NCBI GenBank assembly: GCA_963722385.1 | Contig: CAVRKK010000001.1 | Span: 186,813-250,812 of the forward strand | Length of the DNA stretch: 64,000 nucleotides | DNA from: an uncultured bacterium | Lineage (GTDB): Bacteria > Babelota > Babeliae > Babelales > Babelaceae | Direction: 5' to 3' | Part shown: positions 37,085-56,986 of the stretch, piece after piece | How the letters are laid out: every line of letters starts with the position of its first letter | Numbering within the stretch: position 1 is the first letter of the stretch | Made by a program: the position numbers and the translations under genes | The notes under the pieces: generated by a model | What the model was told of the DNA's origin: nothing | Database searches by the model: none | What the model saw: only the letters and a program-made list of their open reading frames with translations

Positions 37085-37530
37085 CGTGCGCTTACGCAGC
37101 CGACTTCGCCGAGGCGGTGGGAACGCTTACGCAGCGGGCGCGACTCCGCGTCGAGCGGCAGGGCGGCGGCCCTGCACCCGTCGATTTGTTTTTGTTACTT
37201 ACGTGCCTCATCTTCTTTACGTCTATGATGCTCTAACCATGCGAGGCGCATGCTTAGAGCTACCGCAATTTTCCTGACGGAAAATAGATTTTTATCATGA
37301 AGCGTAGCGCACATGATAATGGCGTAAGTTATCGTGCGCTTTGGCGAACGATAACTACACACACCAAGCCTGTAAGCATAACGCTTTGGGGATTGCTAAG
37401 GGACGATGTCCCTTAGCCCCCAGCCGGGCAGGCGATTCGATTCAATTCAATTCGCTCTGTTCCGTCAGCCGTACGCGACTTCGCCTAGGCTACACCCACC
37501 AAGCAGGCGATTCAGTTCAATTTCAATTCA
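37085..37530 (-). repeat. Structured palindromic repeat element, copy B (inverted relative to copy A), inserted between rny and ymdB
   Basis: The reverse complement of 37259-37478 matches 29847-30068 with two 1-nt indels and one substitution (manual alignment). 37141-37260 is a diverged match to 30067-30182. The terminus motif caggcgattc(a/g)(g/a)ttcaatt is duplicated at 37427-37455 and 37503-37530. Confidence 0.85.
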
Positions 37531-45497: not shown

Positions 45498-45806
45498 GGG
45501 CTAACCCCTTTAAAGATTTTTACTCTTTAAAAGCTTTAAACCCACTGTTTATTATATCATCACACGCACGCCAGGGCAATCTTCTCGCCCGATGCTCGCC
45601 GTTTCATCACCACATTCTTCACCACACCCCCTCCACACCGATCCCTCAACAAAGCCCCTTCCTCTTACCTCGGACAAAGGGGCCCCAGCACACAACCACC
45701 TCCCCCCAAAAGGTGGTGGGGAACCGCTCCGATAAGGCTGGCGGCGGGGGCGCAGGGATCGCTCCAAAGTTGAGCGAACAACACTAAGAAAATATGAGCA
45801 TATCAC

Positions 45807-45835
45807 TTGACCTCATATAAACAAGATGCTAAAGT
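45807..45835 (+). promoter_or_regulatory. Candidate sigma70-type promoter of dnaK
   Basis: TTGACC (45807-45812), a 17-nt spacer, then TAAAGT (45830-45835), about 55 nt upstream of the dnaK ATG. I found no CIRCE element. Confidence 0.35.
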
Positions 45836-45889
45836 GTAACTAGCTTAAATAGAAGGGAAAATTGCAATAAATAAAGAAGGAATATAAGC

Positions 45890-47789: not shown

Positions 47790-47820
47790 GCAGGCAGTTG
47801 GACATGTTCCAACTGCCTGC
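47790..47820 (+). terminator. Hairpin downstream of dnaK (putative terminator, no U-tract)
   Basis: GCAGGCAGTTGGA-catgt-TCCAACTGCCTGC forms a perfect 13-bp stem. Confidence 0.4.
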
Positions 47821-48002
47821 ACCTCCCAGAGCCTCTTCTCGCCTGCCCACCAGTGATAAAGCTTACTCTTGTATTGCTCAATAAGTCCCAAAACCGATCC
47901 ATTTTTATATTTAAAAATAAAGGCCTTGCTTTTGCCATTTTATTTATATTAGTATTGATGATGTGATGAAAATAAGACATTGATCATCAAAGGAGCAATA
48001 AA

Positions 48003-48692
48003 ATGCTTAATAAAATCCGTTACCTTATACTTGACATCTTTTTTACCATCGTTGTCCTATCGGCAGGTCCACTTTTCGCCCAAGATCAGGTAGACATAAA
48101 GCAAGTATTAGCCGATAAATACGAAGAAAGAGCAGGCTATATGATCGACAGCAGCGAGCAACAAAGCATTCATAACAAGGGCTGGTCGCCTACGTACGGC
48201 GAAATTACTCCTGAAGGTGCTTCGATACTTATCAAAGAGCTCAAATTAACCAACAAAGACCGTTTTTACGATCTTGGCTGTGGCGTTGGCAAGCTTGTAT
48301 TTCAGATTTTTTTGGAGGGCGGCGTACAAAAAAGCGTAGGCATCGAGCTCTCTCCGTCACGATTACAGTATGCCAAAAAAGTGCACGCCGATATCAAACA
48401 TACCATACCTGCCGACAATCGAATATTAGCGTTTATCGAACAAAACATGCTCGAAGCTGATTTGAGCGATGCCACGGCACTCTACGTAGCCTCTACCTGT
48501 TTTTCAAACGACGTTATGACCAAACTAGCTCAAAAATTATCATCATTGCCTGCAGGAACACGCTTAGTAACGTTAACCGAGCTACCTAACCTTTACAACT
48601 TCCGCTTGGACAAAAAGGTTACCATTCCCATGACATGGTCGCCAAATACCACAGCGTATTTTTACGTCCTTGATCCAAAAAAGCGCAGCTGA
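48003..48692 (+). CDS. DOT1-like SAM-dependent (histone-lysine-type) methyltransferase with N-terminal leader
   Basis: SPTYGEITPEGASILIKELKLTNKDRFYDLGCGVGKLVFQ...VGIE parallels the human DOT1L core [41 protein letters not shown]...YGVE (recalled from memory). ALYVASTCFSNDVMTKLAQKL...GTRLVT parallels [21 protein letters not shown]...GGRIVS. The leader is MLNKIRYLILDIFFTIVVLSAGPLFA. Confidence 0.75.
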   Translation: MLNKIRYLILDIFFTIVVLSAGPLFAQDQVDIKQVLADKYEERAGYMIDSSEQQSIHNKGWSPTYGEITPEGASILIKELKLTNKDRFYDLGCGVGKLVFQIFLEGGVQKSVGIELSPSRLQYAKKVHADIKHTIPADNRILAFIEQNMLEADLSDATALYVASTCFSNDVMTKLAQKLSSLPAGTRLVTLTELPNLYNFRLDKKVTIPMTWSPNTTAYFYVLDPKKRS

Positions 48693-48735
48693 TAAACCAT
48701 AATGCTTCCTATCTTCCGTTAGGAAGATTGCGTTT

Positions 48736-48845
48736 GCCTAATCATGCGCCCCGCATGGTTATGGCATTGAACGAACGAGTTACAAAGATGAGCACTTAGA
48801 GCAGGAGGTCCCAAATCAACGGGTGCAGGGCCGCCGCCATGCCGC
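48736..48845 (+). repeat. Structured palindromic repeat element, partial copy C (hairpin module plus GC module)
   Basis: 48739-48770 (taatcatgcgccccgcatggttatggcattga) matches 30071-30102. 48812-48845 (caaatcaacgggtgcagggccgccgccatgccgc) matches the GC module of copies A and B. Confidence 0.75.
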
Positions 48846-48924
48846 CCACCGCGTAGGTGTGCTCGCCGCACAGGCGCCCCACGCCGCTTGATATAGTCGC
48901 ACCCAGCTACGATATCCATCAAGC

Positions 48925-51900
48925 TCAGCCAACCCACTCCTGAGCAGGTGCGATGATATTCTGCTCCTCAGTCTTCATAGCATCAATAAGACTGCTATAC
49001 TGATCAACAATGCACTGGCTCGTTACGCCCTCAGCACAGACAGAAGCAAGGTAGGTATGGATAAAGCACGCTGAAATTGCCTGAAAAATATAATCAGCCC
49101 ACTCCTTGGTTGTTGAAAGCGCACCAGCTAGGGCCGCTTTTGCCCCAGCCAAATGGCCAACCTGCTCAGGCGTGATAGCGCCACCAAAGAGAAAGTCCCT
49201 AAGAATACTCCGCACCTTCTCAGCAGACAATGACCCCGTAATGAAAACCGTCGCTAAATCCTGAGCCTTCTTGGTTGCCGGATCAATCGGTAAACGCTTG
49301 GCAAGATAAGCTTGAACAACCGAATCCTGTTGAACTTTTGCTTGAGCATTTTGAGCACCTGTCGACAATGCGCCCATAGCACTCGCGCTCGGGTTCACAA
49401 GAACAACCCCGCCACGCTGCGCTTGCTCAGCTATAGTTGTATCAACCGACGTTAAATAAACAAGCGCATCCAAAATAGACTCTCTTAATTTCTTACACTC
49501 ATCTTTTTCATCTTCCCTAAAGCCAAAAACAATCGAGCAATCCGCCATCAGCTGATCGAATGACGAAACGCTGCCACCAGAGGATAAAATAAGCGGTGTT
49601 GACCAACGCGACTTATACCAGCCTACAAAATACTCAATAGCACCGTAAAACAAAGCCTCCAATCCCTCAAGCCCCATCCTCGTAGCCTTCTGCTCATAGA
49701 GAGCAGCCTGCTCAGCATCAACCTGCTGATAATCAGAGCCTAACGACTGGTACAGACCCTGCGCAGTATTAAAATAAGATAATGAAGCAATATAGTGTTG
49801 TTTGCTGTAGTAAGCACGCGCAACATTCTCAAACATTTGCCCTCTCTTTGTTCGCACCGCAAGCCCGCTGACGTGCGCCTGCTGATAGGCACCTTCGGCA
49901 AAGACATACAACTTGGAAGCAAGAGTAAGATAGTTCTGGTATTGCACTGCCCTAGGATCTCCCATTAAAAACGAAGCTACAAAATCAGCATGCTGCTCAT
50001 AACAAAAACCAAGTAATCCTTGTGCTTCAGGCAAACCTAGCCCCGTTAGAGCACTCGGCGAAGCAGCAGTAGCCACATACGTAGCAGCCAAAGCAAAATA
50101 ATCTTGTACCCACGAAACAGCGCTCACCAGTTGCTTTGCCTGTGCATGGTCAAGATTGTCAATGTCAGGTACATGCTGAAAAAATGCACGTTGTGCTACC
50201 AGCTGAGCCCGCTCTTGCTCATCAACGGTAATAAGCTTGAGCAGATCTTTAGAAACTACCCCACCACGCATATATGCTATTTTCTCAAAAAAAGCATACA
50301 CTTGCGACAAATAAGCCTGCTGTATATTACGCTGCAAAGCATTTACCCGCTCCTGGGCGTACTTCTGCTGGCTCGAAGAAGCCGTCTTAAAGCTCTGGTA
50401 CTGATTAAGCGCAAAAGCATAAGCCAGAACCGCCGTAGGATCTACCTGCTCACTTTTTTGCCCCATAGGCACAGGGAAAACGGGAATATTACAGTAAACA
50501 AGCGCTGGCAACCGTCCCGCTGGCGCTAAAAAAGTCAGCGTTGTTTTAATCGCAAGACCATCTAATTTAGTCCCATGCGCCATCAGGTCGGCCAAATGCG
50601 TACGATAGCTCTGCGCAGCTTGGACATAAGGCACAAAGGCTGGATCGGCAACAGCTTCAGATCCTACGACGCTCGCCACATAGTCGTGGGTAAAGCTCCC
50701 TACAAGCCCCGCTGCCATGAGATGCTGATATAAGTATGCTGCAGCAGCTACGATACGTAAATCCTCCTCGAGCGACACTCTTAAGCTCGCGTCATTCTTG
50801 TTTTTACTATAAGCCGCATAGTCGCTAAAAAGAGCTGCTGGCGTCAAAGCGGGCTTTTGCGGCAATTGAACGAGCCATGGTGATAAGAAATATTGGCCGT
50901 ACACGGGAAGGCCTCCGAGAAAAGAGCTAAACCTGGTGGTATTAGGCAGCCCAACCTTAGCGGCATCAGCTACCATATCAGCCAAGGCAAGCGCACCCTC
51001 TATCTGACTTAAAAGCGCCATCTCGTGACCAAGCTGCACATTGCCAATATTGTTATAAGCTGTACCGGCTTGCGCATAGGCGCCAGCCGCAATGCCACGA
51101 TAGCCCGTAGACAAGGTACATTCAGCTGCTTGCAGCGGAACCTGCGCTGCTCCAACAAGAGCAGTAGCCCGCTCCACCGCCCAATCACCTTGCTTTTGAG
51201 AAAGCTGGGCTAATTGCAGCATAAGCGACCCAAGTGGCAAAGCACGTATGTTAGAAAAAAGTGGCGAACTATATATAACATTCCCACTGCCCTGAGCTTT
51301 AACAAACAATGCCTTTAAATCAGGAACAGCCTGCATAAGCGCATCTTTTTGATCACTCAACGCTAATGAAACGCGAGCGACCAATGAATCAGCTCGCTCT
51401 TGCCATAACTGCAAAGAACGTACGGCTTGCAAGACCTCAGCATAGCCCTGCTTGGGGTCGAGGTGCAATGCAGCAGCCTGACCCGCCAAAATTCTGGCCT
51501 GCTCAACAAATTTTTCCAGCCAATGTTGCATTTTTAATAAGAGCTCCGAAACATGCGGTACCGATACGCCGCCAACTGCATCTAGGAGATAAAGACGATA
51601 CTGCGCAACAACACGTAACCATGCATCAGCCTCGGGGCCCATAGCATATGACTGGACATAACCAAGCAGACAATCCCGATAAAGAGTAGGCCCATCTTTA
51701 AATAATACCGATTGCCCCCCTGCATGCCAAATCGTGTAGACAGCAAGTGTCGCACTCAGCGCGGATTCCCAAAGGGCAACCAATGATGCATTGACGTCAG
51801 ACTTATTGCTTTTTGCTTGCTCATCAGCACTTTGAGCAGCAGCCAAGGCCTGACGAGCAGACTGCACAATCGCCGTAACGCGCCGTAATGAGCGCATGAT

Positions 51901-53835
51901 ATCTTGACGCACATCAGCAGATAAATACTGCTGATAAGAAAAGGCCGCGAGGTAATAATCAGCAAGCAATACCTGGTGCGCATCTCCCGTACCAGCAGCC
52001 ACAACAACCGAAGCAGCAAGCACCCGGTACCGATGGGCAAGAAAGCCACCAATAAACGTAGCAAACGAACTCGACGGCAAAAATGTATAAAATGGTACAA
52101 AAACATGCACTCTTTTTGCACCAGCTATTCGAATCAAACTTTGATACGATGAGTCTGACGTAGCCAATAACGACAGAGCCGAGGCAGCGAGCTTCTGCAC
52201 CTGAGCAACCACAAGAGCATTACGCTCCCCGCCCAAAAGCTTCATCGCCTGTGCTAAAAGTGAGCCAGCCGAACCGCAATTATCAAAGATAGTTTTGCCT
52301 GTCATCAGCGTAAGCTGATTACCGATGTACTGCGTCTGCATACTGGTCAATAATGGCCCATTAGAGTACAGCGTACTTCCCGTCTGGGAAGCAATTTGGT
52401 ACTGAACATTGGCCCGATCATACAAAGCCCCTGCCGCCCGGCAGGCATCTGCCAGCGAACCAAAAACATCCTGAAAGGTATCTTTGTTTTTGAGATCAGT
52501 CGTTTGGATAAAAGAGGCAGCTTGAGCAAAACGCTTCTGATAAGCCCCGACGAAATTTTTAAGCTTGGTACCAGCCTGAGCAAAATATGAATCAGCCAGA
52601 AGTAAAGCACTTGCCTGCTGTATATGCTGAGCCAGCCAGGATGCACCACCTGCTTGTAACGGCGCGATAGCCTGCCCGAGAGCAGCAACCTGAGCATCAA
52701 GGCCGCCACTGGCCAACGCAGCATCAAGAAGCTTAATCGCCTCGTCCAGACTCCGGTAAAATCCCTGAAAGCGAGCTTGAAGCGCCTCAAAGTCCCCACC
52801 AGTCATTCCCTTATAGGCATCAGCAGCCAGCTTAACATACGTGCACGCTTTTTCCAGAAAAAGCCGGTTATGCGACCGTGATCCTACCATATCAGCAAGA
52901 GCAATAAGCAAATCTTCGGGCCTCATAGCAGCGAGCTGGTTCTGATAGGCATTATACGCTATCTGCGCCATTGACAGATGAAAGGACTGCAACGCTTGCT
53001 GAGCATTGGCAAAGCCAGAAATTACAAGATCTTCGCGCCAAGCACTCTGCGCCTGCTGAAAATAGAGCTGTGCCTGCGCCACAACCGATGCTGACGCGGC
53101 GGATTGCGGACGCTCAGCTAGGTCGCTCAGTGCCAAAGTATAGGTTGCCACCAAGAGGCCCTTCGTTGATGAGCCATAGGGCTGATACAGCGCATCCCAA
53201 TTTTTTGCCACGTAAGGTTTTGCCCGTAGCACCGCAGTATCGTAGCGCTTTGCTTGCACCGATAGCTGATTCGCTAGACCCGTATAATCTTTGCCAACAG
53301 ATTTGAAATAAATTATGGTATTTTTTAACGCTTGAAGATTATGCAAAAACAAGGACATCGTACGCTTAATTACCGAAATGACATAATTGTTGCTTACCGT
53401 GCCATCAATGACAAAATGAGGAACTGAGCCATTCATCGTGATAGCAGGATCGGTATAAGCCTTGGCAAAAGCACTAATGGCGCTTTGATAAGCACTAATA
53501 GCAGCTTGATCAATTGGTCGATACGTGATCTTAACCCCGCCAATTTGCGCAAACCCTTCACCCGTTAAGCGTATGGCTGAGTTATATGCTTTCTCCGCTT
53601 GCTGAAAATAACGACTCCGCCATAAAAAGATAATCGGTGAAACAACAGGCTTCACCTTAGACTTACCGCCAATGGTTGCACCACCAGCCCCATGTTGAAT
53701 AGGTGCCTGTCCACCAATACCAGCAGGTTGCCGTGAGGCAATGCTGCCTCCCGGCGCTCCAATACTCGGGCCGATCATGGCGTGCACATCGCCATAAATA
53801 ACCAAACAAATAAGTGAAAAGTAGATATAACGCAT
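48925..53835 (-). CDS. Giant secreted hypothetical protein (1636 aa), Ala/Gln/Tyr-rich, predicted helical
   Basis: This is an uninterrupted 4.9-kb ORF with the leader MRYIYFSLICLVIYGDVHA. I recognised no catalytic motif. Confidence 0.75.
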   Translation of the reverse strand: MRYIYFSLICLVIYGDVHAMIGPSIGAPGGSIASRQPAGIGGQAPIQHGAGGATIGGKSKVKPVVSPIIFLWRSRYFQQAEKAYNSAIRLTGEGFAQIGGVKITYRPIDQAAISAYQSAISAFAKAYTDPAITMNGSVPHFVIDGTVSNNYVISVIKRTMSLFLHNLQALKNTIIYFKSVGKDYTGLANQLSVQAKRYDTAVLRAKPYVAKNWDALYQPYGSSTKGLLVATYTLALSDLAERPQSAASASVVAQAQLYFQQAQSAWREDLVISGFANAQQALQSFHLSMAQIAYNAYQNQLAAMRPEDLLIALADMVGSRSHNRLFLEKACTYVKLAADAYKGMTGGDFEALQARFQGFYRSLDEAIKLLDAALASGGLDAQVAALGQAIAPLQAGGASWLAQHIQQASALLLADSYFAQAGTKLKNFVGAYQKRFAQAASFIQTTDLKNKDTFQDVFGSLADACRAAGALYDRANVQYQIASQTGSTLYSNGPLLTSMQTQYIGNQLTLMTGKTIFDNCGSAGSLLAQAMKLLGGERNALVVAQVQKLAASALSLLATSDSSYQSLIRIAGAKRVHVFVPFYTFLPSSSFATFIGGFLAHRYRVLAASVVVAAGTGDAHQVLLADYYLAAFSYQQYLSADVRQDIMRSLRRVTAIVQSARQALAAAQSADEQAKSNKSDVNASLVALWESALSATLAVYTIWHAGGQSVLFKDGPTLYRDCLLGYVQSYAMGPEADAWLRVVAQYRLYLLDAVGGVSVPHVSELLLKMQHWLEKFVEQARILAGQAAALHLDPKQGYAEVLQAVRSLQLWQERADSLVARVSLALSDQKDALMQAVPDLKALFVKAQGSGNVIYSSPLFSNIRALPLGSLMLQLAQLSQKQGDWAVERATALVGAAQVPLQAAECTLSTGYRGIAAGAYAQAGTAYNNIGNVQLGHEMALLSQIEGALALADMVADAAKVGLPNTTRFSSFLGGLPVYGQYFLSPWLVQLPQKPALTPAALFSDYAAYSKNKNDASLRVSLEEDLRIVAAAAYLYQHLMAAGLVGSFTHDYVASVVGSEAVADPAFVPYVQAAQSYRTHLADLMAHGTKLDGLAIKTTLTFLAPAGRLPALVYCNIPVFPVPMGQKSEQVDPTAVLAYAFALNQYQSFKTASSSQQKYAQERVNALQRNIQQAYLSQVYAFFEKIAYMRGGVVSKDLLKLITVDEQERAQLVAQRAFFQHVPDIDNLDHAQAKQLVSAVSWVQDYFALAATYVATAASPSALTGLGLPEAQGLLGFCYEQHADFVASFLMGDPRAVQYQNYLTLASKLYVFAEGAYQQAHVSGLAVRTKRGQMFENVARAYYSKQHYIASLSYFNTAQGLYQSLGSDYQQVDAEQAALYEQKATRMGLEGLEALFYGAIEYFVGWYKSRWSTPLILSSGGSVSSFDQLMADCSIVFGFREDEKDECKKLRESILDALVYLTSVDTTIAEQAQRGGVVLVNPSASAMGALSTGAQNAQAKVQQDSVVQAYLAKRLPIDPATKKAQDLATVFITGSLSAEKVRSILRDFLFGGAITPEQVGHLAGAKAALAGALSTTKEWADYIFQAISACFIHTYLASVCAEGVTSQCIVDQYSSLIDAMKTEEQNIIAPAQEWVG

Positions 53836-53957: not shown

Positions 53958-55130
53958 TTACAGAATTCTAAAATTTGAGACTAATTTTATAGCGTTTTCG
54001 AGGACTAGCCTTGCAGCACCATCAGAATGGCGTCGTAGCATAGCGTCATGCAAAAGCTGCCTAATTTTGAGACGCCCCTCACCAGCAGTGTAGCCTATCT
54101 GCTCACGCGTCTGTTGCCATGGAACATGCGGAAGCGAACTAAATACGGTCATCAGATCAAGATTAAGCGAATTGCGGTGATCATAGTCAATCAAGTACTC
54201 TGCTATTTCAACATTACCTCCAGCAGCGGCCTCATGCAAAGCCTTTTCCAAGGCCGATTTAACGCCTTTTCTCGAAGCATCCAACTTTTCAAGCAGAACT
54301 TTGAAATAATCTATCTTGCCCAACTGAGCAGAAAGAATAACGAGCTGTTGTAAAAATCCTTGAGTACATTCCATCATACCCATAAGTTCAGCAAGCAAAT
54401 CGGCTTGAACAACTTCATTATCATTAAGAAGCTCTAAAACACCACCTGCTAGCTGTTCTTCGCTCGTCGGTTCTTTATCTTCAGCAAGAAGTCTTTTAGC
54501 AATACGTATGGTATTGGGGCTATTTGACAATAATAGCTCTAAGTGCAACCCGGCATCGGACACCGTCAAAACTTCAGGATGAGCTAATTCTCTTATGACC
54601 TGGTCAAGCACCTGATAAAATTGAGGCTCACTTGGATCTAATGCAATCAACGTGAAGAAAGCGCTTGCGTCTGCAATACTTAACATATTGCGCTCAGAAA
54701 GACGTATGCCCGGTCCTCTATGAACCAATCTCTTAAACATCTCTTTATGGCCCCAACGAGCAACCAGAATAACTAATCTCTGCCAAAATCCCTCCGACAA
54801 CTTCACTTTGCTCAACATCGTCTCGAGCAAATCAACCTGACCATTCTCAACAGCGCCAATAATCGCGAGGGATAGCTCCCGTTTACGCGAATACCCTGTG
54901 TCTGCTTCTTCGGCAGCCCGCATTAACGCCCGTTCCAAGCGAGGATCCCGGAGTGTTAGTTCAAAGGCACCGCCCGCATCGGCTATCGTAAGCACGTCCT
55001 CACTTCGAGTTTCAACGCTACGAGTTTCAACGCCTTGGCTTCTCTCTTCCTGAGGCGCCTCCATAGCCATCATGCCAGCGCCACCAAGCGCTATCAAGGA
55101 AAGGCTAACTGCTTGCAATAATTTTGACAT
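53958..55130 (-). CDS. Secreted protein with degenerate ankyrin-like repeats
   Basis: It has the leader MSKLLQAVSLSLIALGGAGMMA and ANK-like units (AIIGAVENGQVDLLETML; ALHEAAAGGNVEIAEYLIDY). It also has a VETRS-VETRS tandem duplication. Confidence 0.5.
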   Translation of the reverse strand: MSKLLQAVSLSLIALGGAGMMAMEAPQEERSQGVETRSVETRSEDVLTIADAGGAFELTLRDPRLERALMRAAEEADTGYSRKRELSLAIIGAVENGQVDLLETMLSKVKLSEGFWQRLVILVARWGHKEMFKRLVHRGPGIRLSERNMLSIADASAFFTLIALDPSEPQFYQVLDQVIRELAHPEVLTVSDAGLHLELLLSNSPNTIRIAKRLLAEDKEPTSEEQLAGGVLELLNDNEVVQADLLAELMGMMECTQGFLQQLVILSAQLGKIDYFKVLLEKLDASRKGVKSALEKALHEAAAGGNVEIAEYLIDYDHRNSLNLDLMTVFSSLPHVPWQQTREQIGYTAGEGRLKIRQLLHDAMLRRHSDGAARLVLENAIKLVSNFRIL

Positions 55131-55954: not shown

Positions 55955-56986
55955 TTAAGATAAACCGCTTTCTGAAACAATGATCTGCATAACGAACAAA
56001 AATAAAACAGCAAAGAGAACCGCCGAGTTTATATTTTTTTCTATCTCAGACTTGATACGCTCCGCATAATGCCTAGCGAGTTGCCTCGTATCAGCGGTCA
56101 GATTGCTGATTGTTTTTTTGCATAGGGTAAGTAAAAGAGAATAAGAACCATAATGCCAAGCAATGCTATATGCCTTCTCAAAAGCCACAAGGTGACTTAG
56201 ATTATCACCAGGAACGTGCTCATGGAGTGAAATAAATGCTTCAGTATTGCTGCGTAACGCACTTACCCATAAAGCGCTCGATATTGTTATGGGCGACAAA
56301 TACTTGCCAGCTTGCTCAAAAATGAGCTCGATTATTGAGACACGATTATAAGCAGCTGCTATAACCAAAAAGTCATCAAGCGTAATTGCCGGCCGAGGAA
56401 ACTCGTGCTCTTTCACGCGCTCTTCGGCATGGAGCAAACCATGCAAAAAATTATACATCAACTCATCATAATCCGTTCCCTCAATAATCGCATAGATAAG
56501 CGAATTTTCACCAAAAATAGCCTTAATTTTTCTTCTTAGCGTCACATCAAGAGGAACACCAACCCTGAGCAATGCGCGAACTGCCAGGCCATTTGAGTCA
56601 TCAAGTGCTCTGGCCATAAGCAAAGGGCCCCAAAACACGATATCAATTTCTTTTTGATATACCAACCATTCGAAAGATTTATGGTCCCACCATCTAGAAT
56701 CTTTAAAATAGACGCCCAGAAACTGCGCCGATAAACGCACATCCCTATCGTACAGCACTTCAAGCGCATCTCTATTATCTACCAGACATGCAATATCAAG
56801 AAGCGTCAAGCCCGTATGATTTCTAAACTTATAACGCCGATCCAAATCGATAGAACTCTTCTTTAACTGCTCAGTAGCTGCTGGCAAACGAGAAGTAATA
56901 AGTTCCAACAACATGCCGCCAGGATTCTTCATAGCCAAAGCATGTTCGCAAATTAATAGCAGCAATACAAATAAAGCAATACGCAT
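55955..56986 (-). CDS. Secreted protein with ankyrin-like repeats and a C-terminal hydrophobic tail
   Basis: It has the leader MRIALFVLLLLICEHALA, ANK-like units (TGLTLLDIACLVDNRDALEVLYDRDVRL; AVRALLRVGVPLD) and a C-terminal AVLFAVLFLFVMQIIV. Confidence 0.45.
   Translation of the reverse strand: MRIALFVLLLLICEHALAMKNPGGMLLELITSRLPAATEQLKKSSIDLDRRYKFRNHTGLTLLDIACLVDNRDALEVLYDRDVRLSAQFLGVYFKDSRWWDHKSFEWLVYQKEIDIVFWGPLLMARALDDSNGLAVRALLRVGVPLDVTLRRKIKAIFGENSLIYAIIEGTDYDELMYNFLHGLLHAEERVKEHEFPRPAITLDDFLVIAAAYNRVSIIELIFEQAGKYLSPITISSALWVSALRSNTEAFISLHEHVPGDNLSHLVAFEKAYSIAWHYGSYSLLLTLCKKTISNLTADTRQLARHYAERIKSEIEKNINSAVLFAVLFLFVMQIIVSESGLS

Follow-up and report, generated by a model that had tools for sequence, protein, structure and literature searches.

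A DOT1-like methyltransferase gene with a predicted Sec leader in a Dependentiae genome

The stretch of DNA analysed here, called the window, is 64,000 nt (64 kb) of contig CAVRKK010000001.1 (assembly GCA_963722385.1), and the gene in question is an open reading frame (ORF) at 48003-48692 on the forward strand, with its ATG at 48003 and a TGA at 48690-48692, that encodes a protein of 229 amino acids (aa). A first-pass annotation made from the sequence had described the product as a short, leader-bearing bacterial homologue of the eukaryotic histone H3K79 methyltransferase DOT1, and as a strong candidate for a secreted enzyme that methylates host histones. The results below establish the DOT1 kinship, suggest that the protein is exported, and point to substrates other than nucleosomes. 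Features of the locus are collected in Table 1. The gene follows dnaK and is convergent with a gene for a 1636-aa protein. The hairpin downstream of dnaK has no T-run, which is why it was not listed by the terminator scan; from its position and sequence it likely separates dnaK from the transcription unit of the DOT1-like gene. A consensus scan for promoters and terminators around the DOT1-like gene gave a site count no higher than in shuffled sequence, and a tblastn search of the window found no paralogue. The GC content of the gene (0.436) and its third-position GC (GC3, 0.461) are both inside the range of its neighbours.

Table 1. Features of the DOT1-like gene and its immediate surroundings (window coordinates)
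Feature	Position	Strand	Description	Basis or remark
Hairpin	47790-47820	+	perfect 13-bp stem, 5-nt loop, GCAGGCAGTTGGA-CATGT-TCCAACTGCCTGC	begins 11 nt past dnaK stop
Shine-Dalgarno	47990-47995	+	AAGGAG	7 nt 5' of ATG; read from sequence
DOT1-like methyltransferase ORF	48003-48692	+	229 aa + stop	Pfam, PDB phmmer, AF2 model, Foldseek, hhalign
Predicted Sec signal peptide	48003-48080	+	residues 1-26, MLNKIRYLILDIFFTIVVLSAGPLFA	sequence pattern; cleavage site inferred
Mature catalytic domain	48081-48689	+	residues 27-229, class I Rossmann fold, DOT1 type	AF2, Foldseek
Motif X (VYGE in DOT1L)	48192-48203	+	TYGE, residues 64-67	alignments, hhalign
Motif I (DLGSGxG)	48270-48290	+	DLGCGVG, residues 90-96, SAM-binding loop	alignments, hhalign
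Motif II (GxE)	48339-48347	+	GIE, residues 113-115	E115 = DOT1L E186, SAM ribose
R120	48360-48362	+		clade signature
Motif III region	48444-48452	+	N148-M149-L150 vs DOT1L D222-F223-L224 (adenine contact)	hhalign, alignment
Motif IV	48489-48503	+	ASTCF, residues 163-167, vs NNFAF in DOT1L	hhalign, alignment
Motif VI (Gx6K)	48555-48578	+	GTRLVTLT, residues 185-192	alignments
Motif VIII (VSWT)	48630-48641	+	MTWS, residues 210-213	alignments
GC-rich repeat, partial copy	48705-48880	+	3' ~190 nt of the repeat	similarity to full copies

By profile and by predicted fold, the protein is a true member of the DOT1 family and not a generic class I methyltransferase. The Pfam DOT1 model (PF08123) matched residues 62-196 with a score of 68.9 bits (E 5.6e-19), its cut-off being 23; of the generic Pfam models the highest-scoring one, Methyltransf_31, reached 30.5 bits, and the others were under their cut-offs; the DOT1 identity proposed by the first-pass annotation thus stands. 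PF08123 is also present in the precomputed annotation of all members of the clade to which the protein belongs. In a phmmer search of PDB sequences, the best match was 9ne1_A (E 8e-14), a 227-aa chain labelled 'H3K79-specific', followed by Trypanosoma brucei DOT1A (1e-9), Sulfolobus aKMT4 (7e-9) and, further down, human DOT1L (~4e-7) and yeast Dot1p (~3e-6). The 9ne1 entry is LpDot1 (lpp3025) of Legionella pneumophila (PDB 9NE1; preprint, bioRxiv 10.64898/2026.01.11.698932). Its sequence holds the loops RDAIEYVYGE and INSSTL given for LpDot1 in the preprint, and it falls inside the Legionella clade in our neighbour-joining (NJ) tree. With hhalign, the family profile aligned to residues 132-274 of human DOT1L at a probability of 98.8% (E 9e-17), the DOT1L 1-416 sequence used being 100% identical to 1nw3_A. 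The match to the DOT1L core noted in the first pass is therefore real, but it extends over ~135-146 residues in sequence, the phmmer match to DOT1L covering residues 59-204, and not over the ~170 claimed.

The AlphaFold2 (AF2) model, built from a 40-sequence homologue alignment, has a pLDDT of 90.8 and a pTM of 0.83. The best 50 Foldseek matches to this model in the PDB were all DOT1L, Dot1p, TbDOT1A, LpDot1 or aKMT (E 1e-15 to 8e-10), with 9ne1 at the top (E 1e-15, TM 0.71/0.80) and aKMT4 represented at TMt 0.79-0.84; the structural alignments with DOT1-type entries run over ~205-230 columns. Among viral models the top match was a DOT1-domain protein of a giant virus, Hyperionvirus (TM 0.69/0.72). 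Pfam, Foldseek and hhalign thus all agree with the earlier statement that the match goes beyond a generic class I methyltransferase. No NCBIfam model scored above its cut-off; the top one, the archaeal DOT1-like protein-lysine methyltransferase NF041081, gave 39.5 bits against a required 200, and on this score the protein is not a member of that aKMT4 equivalog family. A methyltransferase of small molecules, RNA or DNA that merely resembles DOT1 would be compatible with the weak matches obtained to Hen1, UbiE, CmoA and RlmD (E 2e-4 to 0.01), but these span only the generic motif I region (residues ~70-130) and are far under their cut-offs. Since the DOT1-specific motifs X and VIII (TYGE, MTW) are present, and the best 50 structural matches are all protein-lysine methyltransferases, we regard this explanation as very improbable.

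Active-site motifs were assigned with the DOT1 definitions of PMC10951340. The motifs quoted in the first-pass annotation are exactly where it had placed them (DLGCGVGK at nt 48270-48293, TYGE at residues 64-67 and VGIE ending at E115). Over 40 homologues, G66, E67, D90, G92, G94 and W212 are invariant and Y65, G96, K97 and E115 nearly so. The Tyr, Gly and Glu of motif X, all invariant or nearly so in the family, are retained from human DOT1L to the window protein, and W212, the equivalent of the lysine-channel residue W305 of DOT1L, is found in 40/40 homologues. Conservation of the residues that contact S-adenosylmethionine (SAM) and of the channel Trp therefore reaches human DOT1L, and Y219 probably corresponds to DOT1L Y312 in the alignment. 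In motif III, defined as F(V/L) after the adenine-binding Asp, the Asp/Asn is retained and the Phe is replaced by Met, the family as a whole having I, M or F at this position.

Motifs IV and VI are less typical. The motif IV consensus, NNF(L/A)F, is not matched: both Asn are gone, the final Phe alone is retained, and Ala163 occupies the N241 position. The first-pass annotation had read an F/YV(N/A) element here; the Ala is indeed at that position, but the Asn of DOT1 motif IV is not retained. In motif VI the Lys of Gx6K is replaced by Thr in the sub-clade of the window protein, many other family members having Lys or Arg, and kinetoplastid DOT1 enzymes have Asp or Glu at the same position (PMC10951340). 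The missing Asn241 was considered as a sign of inactivity and dropped. The equivalent residue is Ser in T. brucei DOT1A and Ala in DOT1B, both of which are active, and the human DOT1L N241A mutant is active and still makes dimethyl-lysine (me2) (PMC10951340). Thus, the motif IV Asn is not strictly required for activity and, because the SAM-binding motifs and the lysine-channel Trp are intact, the window protein is probably an active enzyme.

The clade of the window protein has a signature of its own, consisting of the invariant Arg120, a motif IV of the form [A/S/C]-S-T-C-F, of which the S-T-C stretch is characteristic, and Met210. This signature is common to the Myxococcota forms and is partly found in aKMT4 and Balamuthia, both of which also have Arg at position 120. 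It is absent from DOT1L, which has Pro191 at the position of Arg120, and from LpDot1 and the forms from the candidate phyla radiation (CPR), which have Leu at 120 and Asn or His at 163.

A further difference from DOT1L and Dot1p lies in the apparatus for docking on nucleosomes. Four nucleosome contacts have been named for these enzymes, namely a basic DNA-binding region, the H4 tail, which is held in a cleft with the N-terminal helical domain with Phe131 assisting, an Arg anchor (R278/R282) on the acidic patch, and a ubiquitin-binding helix; the Arg anchor is reportedly used by all DOT1 enzymes, the short kinetoplastid ones included (PMC10951340). With Phe131 counted apart these make five nucleosome-recognition elements, and none of them was found in the window protein by hhalign, alignment or inspection of its sequence. 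The Arg-anchor loop (DOT1L 273-286) is absent, G185 of motif VI and W212 of motif VIII being separated by 27 residues compared with 42 in DOT1L. The 12 residues from F200 to W212 match the spacing in LpDot1, and loop 273-286 is missing from the LpDot1 crystal structure; in the AF2 model, residues 200-208 form a beta-strand. There is no N-terminal helical domain, as the stretch from the predicted cleavage site to motif X is only 37 residues long and the hhalign match begins at DOT1L residue 132, and the position of the activation-loop Phe131 is taken by G60. The ubiquitin-binding helix (319-331) and the basic DNA-binding region (~390-407) are likewise absent, the chain continuing for 17 residues past W212 and terminating in a basic tail, PKKRS. 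The net charge of the mature domain is 0. The first-pass description of a short copy without the eukaryotic extensions therefore holds, and the protein is a bare catalytic core: of the DOT1-specific elements, the SAM pocket and the channel Trp are present and the substrate-docking apparatus is not.

The same annotation's proposal, that the protein is secreted as a nucleomodulin and acts on histones of the host (on this reading H3K79/K76 or free histone), fares poorly in the light of this comparison. Its support comes from the DOT1 fold and motifs, the export signal, the size of the mature protein (~23 kDa, which could pass nuclear pores by diffusion), the basic PKKRS tail, and the Lys-rich linkers or tails resembling nuclear localization signals (NLS) in homologues P0024, P0036, P0038, P0039, P0022 and P0055; in addition, T. 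brucei DOT1A and DOT1B, although short, methylate nucleosomes (PMC10951340). However, the domain is charge-neutral and has no Arg-anchor loop, though that loop is reported for acidic-patch binding in all DOT1 enzymes (PMC10951340). LpDot1, with the same deletions, was inactive on calf-thymus histones in vitro and methylated K518 of SFPQ (bioRxiv 10.64898/2026.01.11.698932). With all five docking elements missing, nucleosomal H3K79 is an unlikely substrate, and we consider the histone-nucleomodulin reading weak and its correctness improbable.

The N-terminus resembles a Sec leader in its organization, with K4 and R6 in the n-region, an h-region at about residues 12-21 (IFFTIVVLSA), a G22-P23 break in the c-region, and L24 and A26 at positions -3 and -1, after which the mature chain would open with the acidic QDQVD. 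The flanking charges are +3 on the N-terminal side and -2 on the C-terminal side. We infer a Sec signal peptide with cleavage at A26/Q27. In the AF2 model a helix of residues 2-20 stands apart from the domain, and the pLDDT of residues 21-30 is 67. An N-terminal hydrophobic segment was present in 114/160 of the closest family sequences, and many homologues have textbook AxA sites (e.g. ...SLPAWA/EPADP and ...GSLQALA/KVSS). A leader heuristic based on hydrophobicity only behaved poorly on negative controls, since 36/72 raw window ORFs of at least 100 aa passed it, many of them spurious frames; flank-charge asymmetry and inspection of the c-region were therefore relied on. In the window clade, the Dependentiae-like forms and the Finniella/Alphaproteobacteria forms, every N-flank is positive (+1 to +6) and about two-thirds of the C-flanks are neutral or acidic, which is the topology of a signal peptide. 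On these patterns the Sec-like leader recognized in the first pass appears to be present and is conserved in homologues. The Myxococcota and CPR homologues have no leader, and in two Legionella clades there is mostly a hydrophobic segment followed by a charge of +3 to +6, the reverse topology, for which a cytoplasm-facing domain is predicted.

Most of the Legionella DOT1-like homologues (L053-L084, from Legionella and Legionellaceae, the clade of LpDot1 included) begin with such a hydrophobic segment, 15-22 residues long and followed by a strongly basic stretch (+3 to +6), for example L054 5983-6726 and L059 5899-6603. A membrane segment does not seem to be discussed in the text of the LpDot1 preprint, in which 'hydrophobic' has 0 occurrences and 'transmembrane' 1; the residue numbering used there equals that of the 9NE1 chain +11.

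The Legionella arrangement bears on a further possibility, that the N-terminus is an uncleaved anchor with the domain facing inwards and that the enzyme, cytoplasmic or tethered to the inner membrane, methylates bacterial cytoplasmic proteins, for instance those of the nucleoid or ribosome, in the manner of aKMT4 in Crenarchaeota. Besides the cytoplasm-facing domain predicted from the +3 to +6 stretch of the Legionella homologues, the leaderless members in Myxococcota, CPR and Gammaproteobacteria agree with this, as do the close structural match to aKMT4 (TMt 0.79-0.84) and the archaeal protein-lysine methyltransferase as top NCBIfam family. In the window protein, however, the charges are reversed, with K4/R6 before the hydrophobic core and QDQVD after it; there is a G-P break and a small residue at -1; AxA sites occur in many clade members; and the NCBIfam score of 39.5 bits is far under the cut-off of 200. 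We judge this arrangement to be quite unlikely.

The source is, judged from its DnaK sequence, a Dependentiae (Babeliales) bacterium; this DnaK shares 73-77% identity with proteins that bear the names Candidatus Babeliaceae, Babeliales or Dependentiae, and 85% with the DnaK of L005, a 1.52-Mb chromosome from a metagenome-assembled genome (MAG). Dependentiae are a phylum of obligate intracellular protist parasites. The DOT1-like gene is also found downstream of carD-dnaK in L085/L086, L087 and L005 (miaA precedes carD in L085), where the orthologues are 63%, 52% and 46% identical, respectively. In these relatives variable genes, encoding a rhodanese and dnaJ, intervene between dnaK and the DOT1-like gene, and phosphoglucomutase and NTP-transferase genes follow downstream. 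Because of this synteny and its native composition, the gene is taken to be a long-standing, fast-evolving resident of the lineage and not a recent import.

In an exhaustive HMMER search, 3,492 cluster representatives passed E ≤ 1e-3 and 947 passed E ≤ 1e-10; the majority are proteins of 200-260 aa, with some tandem proteins of two to four domains among them. Genome matches came from Dependentiae/Babeliales (42-46% identity) and Legionella (27-33%), and also from Finniella, small-genome Bacteroidota/Alphaproteobacteria, Myxococcota, Gammaproteobacteria, CPR phyla and a few archaea. Bacterial sequences are the nearest relatives (46-65% identity); among the named eukaryotic members, which are more distant, the best match is from Balamuthia (36% over 59% of the query), the others being from Aphanomyces and one MMETSP transcript. 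In the NJ tree the window clade (bootstrap 93%) and the Legionella clade with LpDot1 (9ne1; 97%) are mutually exclusive, but only shallow clades are resolved, the deep nodes having bootstrap values of 2-18%, and thus no conclusion is drawn on the direction of transfer between domains of life. The earlier suggestion of an enzyme acquired by horizontal gene transfer (HGT) is accordingly kept only as a possibility, the nearest relatives being bacterial and the gene syntenic and compositionally native in its lineage. A published phylogeny groups sequences of Dependentiae, Amoebophilus, Berkiella, Megaviridae and protists with Legionella DOT1, and repeated HGT among amoeba-associated organisms has been argued on that basis (PMC10117894).

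Among the tandem proteins are leader-bearing forms of 454-681 aa with two to four DOT1-like domains (P0012-P0015, P0019 and P0046, of metagenomic and Myxococcota origin), from which it follows that the DOT1-like core is used modularly. Two leaderless proteins, P0017 and P0026 (782 and 929 aa), look eukaryotic.

The explanation that we favour, with moderate confidence, is that the product of the gene is a minimal, SAM-dependent protein-lysine methyltransferase of DOT1 fold that is exported and modifies non-nucleosomal proteins, probably those of the host. A precursor with a cleavable Sec-type signal peptide would be made and exported via Sec, and the enzyme would reach a compartment that contains SAM, either the cytoplasm or nucleus of the host or the periplasm of a bacterium lying in the host cytosol. 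There, motif I, E115, N148 and the TYGE loop would hold SAM, motif X, motif IV and Trp212 would form the walls of the channel that takes up the substrate lysine, and lysines of at least one non-nucleosomal protein, most probably of the host as in the parallel case of LpDot1, would become mono-, di- or tri-methylated. Host proteins are thought to be the likeliest substrates because of the LpDot1 precedent, because leader-bearing forms are concentrated in reduced-genome, protist-associated bacteria, and because several homologues have Lys-rich, NLS-like linkers. The particular substrate of LpDot1 is not transferable to the window protein, since the latter belongs to a separate, well-supported clade with its own active-site signature.

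Several observations weigh against an exported host-protein methyltransferase. Sec alone delivers proteins only to the periplasm of a diderm bacterium, and in the 64-kb window no secretion machinery was seen, nor any other route past the outer membrane or into the host. The hydrophobic segment could, from its sequence, be an uncleaved anchor. Motifs IV and VI depart from the canonical DOT1 consensus, and activity in the window clade is a prediction only. Leaderless members are found in free-living Myxococcota and CPR bacteria, and therefore the ancestral substrates of the family may be bacterial proteins, as for archaeal aKMT4. The short DOT1A and DOT1B of T. brucei do methylate nucleosomes, though with the Arg anchor kept. 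Finally, signal peptides occur on 44% of the coding sequences (CDS) and on 78% of the ankyrin-repeat proteins of Chromulinavorax destructans, a cultured Dependentiae species (PMC6561590); because signal peptides are this frequent, the leader is weak evidence for effector status. Export as such is favoured by these figures, by the proposal of Sec as the route for effectors in that species (PMC6561590), and by the leader-like N-termini on neighbours of the DOT1-like gene, namely the 1636-aa protein and two ankyrin-like proteins.

That Sec export alone ends in the periplasm leads to the alternative of a periplasmic or surface enzyme that methylates the bacterium's own envelope proteins with SAM that enters by diffusion from the cytosol of the host. 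An analogue is the methylation of OmpB lysines in Rickettsia by PKMT1 and PKMT2, SAM (~400 Da) should be able to cross the porins of a bacterium in the host cytosol, and in relatives the gene is conserved and syntenic among housekeeping genes, which include dnaK, dnaJ, phosphoglucomutase and NTP-transferase genes. The structure of Rickettsia PKMT2 (5doo) was a weak PDB match (E 0.24), which shows a shared class I fold only. As far as we know, a periplasmic SAM-dependent protein methyltransferase would be the first of its kind and the rickettsial PKMTs have no signal peptide, and the nearest characterised relative, LpDot1, acts on a host protein; we consider the periplasmic alternative unlikely.

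A broader proposal may be put forward tentatively, and we would not be surprised if it proved wrong: that there exists a large clade of Sec-exported DOT1-fold lysine methyltransferases, marked by Arg120 and [A/S/C]-S-T-C-F and concentrated in protist-associated, reduced-genome bacteria, which would methylate host proteins independently of a type IV secretion system (T4SS) or, more unusually, would work in the periplasm with host SAM and mask the bacterium's own surface lysines. Dependentiae/Babeliales, Finniella, and small-genome Bacteroidota and Alphaproteobacteria would, equally tentatively, make up this clade. If this were true, the type of leader would mark three deployments of one fold, with a Sec signal peptide, with a reverse-topology anchor (Legionella), and with neither (Myxococcota, CPR).

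Downstream, the DOT1-like gene adjoins a repeat copy and the 1636-aa gene, as the first-pass annotation had noted. The partial copy of the GC-rich repeat sits in the 232-nt gap between these two convergent genes and starts just 3' of the DOT1-like stop with a hairpin, CTTCC-N-GGAAG, at 48705-48726. The repeat is ~350 nt long in a genome of ~45% GC, and its full copies, at ~29845-30200 (+) and 37124-37481 (-), are 93-98% complementary and form an inverted pair flanking ~7 kb. The partial copy folds better than shuffled sequences (z = -2.2), and the short-read contigs L002-L004 all end at the repeat, ~76 nt past the DOT1-like stop. At the Rfam gathering score nothing was found in the window; in a relaxed search a full copy of the repeat gave sub-threshold matches to a SAM-V riboswitch (21.7 bits against 41, E 0.39) and to a miRNA model, both of which were taken as chance. 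The repeat could be a MITE-like element or an RNA of no known family. A GC-rich stretch at 45552-45806 was examined as another copy and rejected as unrelated.

The 1636-aa leader-bearing protein (48925-53835, -) has no Pfam domain. It had been called an orphan, but the related Dependentiae contigs L085 and L087 encode homologues of 1604-1638 aa in this neighbourhood, and L005 has a 36%-identical fragment. An operon or functional link between this gene and the DOT1-like gene was dropped, as the two are convergent and are separated by 4-6 genes in relatives. Adjacency to the 1636-aa gene and the repeat is specific to the window genome, and, not being conserved in relatives, is given no functional weight.

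Three ankyrin-repeat proteins are encoded in the window, at 53958-55130 (-), 55955-56986 (-) and 31706-33724 (+). The first two lie directly beyond the 1636-aa gene and have signal-peptide-like N-termini, which fits the export of ankyrin proteins seen in Dependentiae. These proteins, a large protein of beta-propeller repeats and the many orphans with leaders make up a content that is typical of the phylum. The beta-propeller protein (12926-16222, +; 1098 aa) has ~20 tandem repeats of 48 aa (144 nt), 'FSPDGSYLATAN...', scores as multiple beta-propellers (Lactonase/WD40-like, 288 bits), and has DNA repeats that are 60-92% identical to a reference copy. At 47-5281 (+) there are three tandem paralogues of ~2 kb (434, 586 and 654 aa) whose DNA is 63-92% identical in blocks; a scan of the middle one alone gave no Pfam domain, and the set looks like a lineage-specific expanded family. 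The carD-dnaK intergenic region (45498-45889, 390 nt) has raised GC (~0.53) and a strong C/G skew, and an 84-aa ORF within it is a called gene in L001 and not in L002 or L003.

Bacterial DOT1-like proteins, with Dependentiae explicitly included, have already been published (PMC10117894), and a crystal structure exists (9NE1), so the novelty implied by the first-pass annotation was overstated. The window gene is not a new enzyme class but an uncharacterised member of a known bacterial DOT1-like type, in a separate clade with a distinct predicted leader and active-site signature. To our knowledge, the Dependentiae are widespread and almost uncultured protist parasites whose effectors are essentially unknown, and we know of no type III, IV or VI secretion system from cultured members. 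A conserved, syntenic and predicted-exported DOT1-fold enzyme is thus a clonable candidate for studying how Dependentiae modify host proteins or their own. It also adds comparative data to a question raised by the LpDot1 work, whether the ancestral short DOT1s of protists and bacteria ever targeted histones. Because the window clade, the Legionella, CPR and Myxococcota forms and aKMT4 are all without docking elements, we favour nucleosome specificity as a eukaryotic addition to a general lysine-methyltransferase core.

Among known systems, the closest is LpDot1, the only characterised bacterial relative, which is presented as a Legionella effector in the preprint (bioRxiv 10.64898/2026.01.11.698932). 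The two share a core-only bacterial DOT1 fold of ~230 aa, LpDot1 being the best match in both sequence (8e-14) and structure (TM 0.71/0.80); deletion of loop 273-286 and of the C-terminal helix, with the F200-W212 spacing of 12; replacement of the activation-loop Phe (by Ala in LpDot1 and Gly here); and an origin in protist-associated intracellular bacteria. They differ in that identity by structural alignment is only ~24%, the clades are distinct, motif IV reads A-S-T-C-F here against N-S-S-T-L in LpDot1, position 120 is Arg here against Leu there, and the window protein has a predicted Sec-type signal peptide where Legionella homologues have no leader or a reverse-topology segment.

The protein has the class I fold and motifs X, I, II and VIII in common with DOT1L and Dot1p (1NW3, 1U2Z, 6NQA), as well as, in DOT1L, the SAM contacts D161/D90, E186/E115 and D222/N148 and the lysine-channel W305/W212. 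Structure-based identity is 17-20%, however, and there is no N-terminal helical domain, Arg-anchor loop, ubiquitin helix or DNA-binding region; compared with DOT1L, Gly takes the place of F131 and Thr that of the motif VI Lys, motif IV does not fit NNF(L/A)F, and a secretion signal is predicted. The T. brucei enzymes (8FJM, 8FJN) are likewise short, have no ubiquitin or DNA dependence (PMC10951340), and carry Ser (DOT1A) or Ala (DOT1B) at the N241 position, where the window protein has Ala; but their motif X is CAKS, not TYGE, and they need the R254, R260 Arg anchor for nucleosome binding, a loop that the window protein does not have. Crenarchaeal aKMT4 (5FA8, 5FAD, 5JWJ) is similar in its minimal DOT1-like core, its Arg at the 120 position and its lack of the motif IV Asn, and differs in having no N-terminal helix, motif X segment or leader; it is a broad-specificity lysine methyltransferase of non-histone proteins, and non-histone substrates are also what we propose for the window protein. 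Finally, the Balamuthia protein P0225, the short Acanthamoeba isoform and the Hyperionvirus protein are core-only and of similar size; these protist and giant-virus DOT1s differ from the window protein in having no signal peptide and, in Balamuthia, in a Lys-rich N-terminal stretch.

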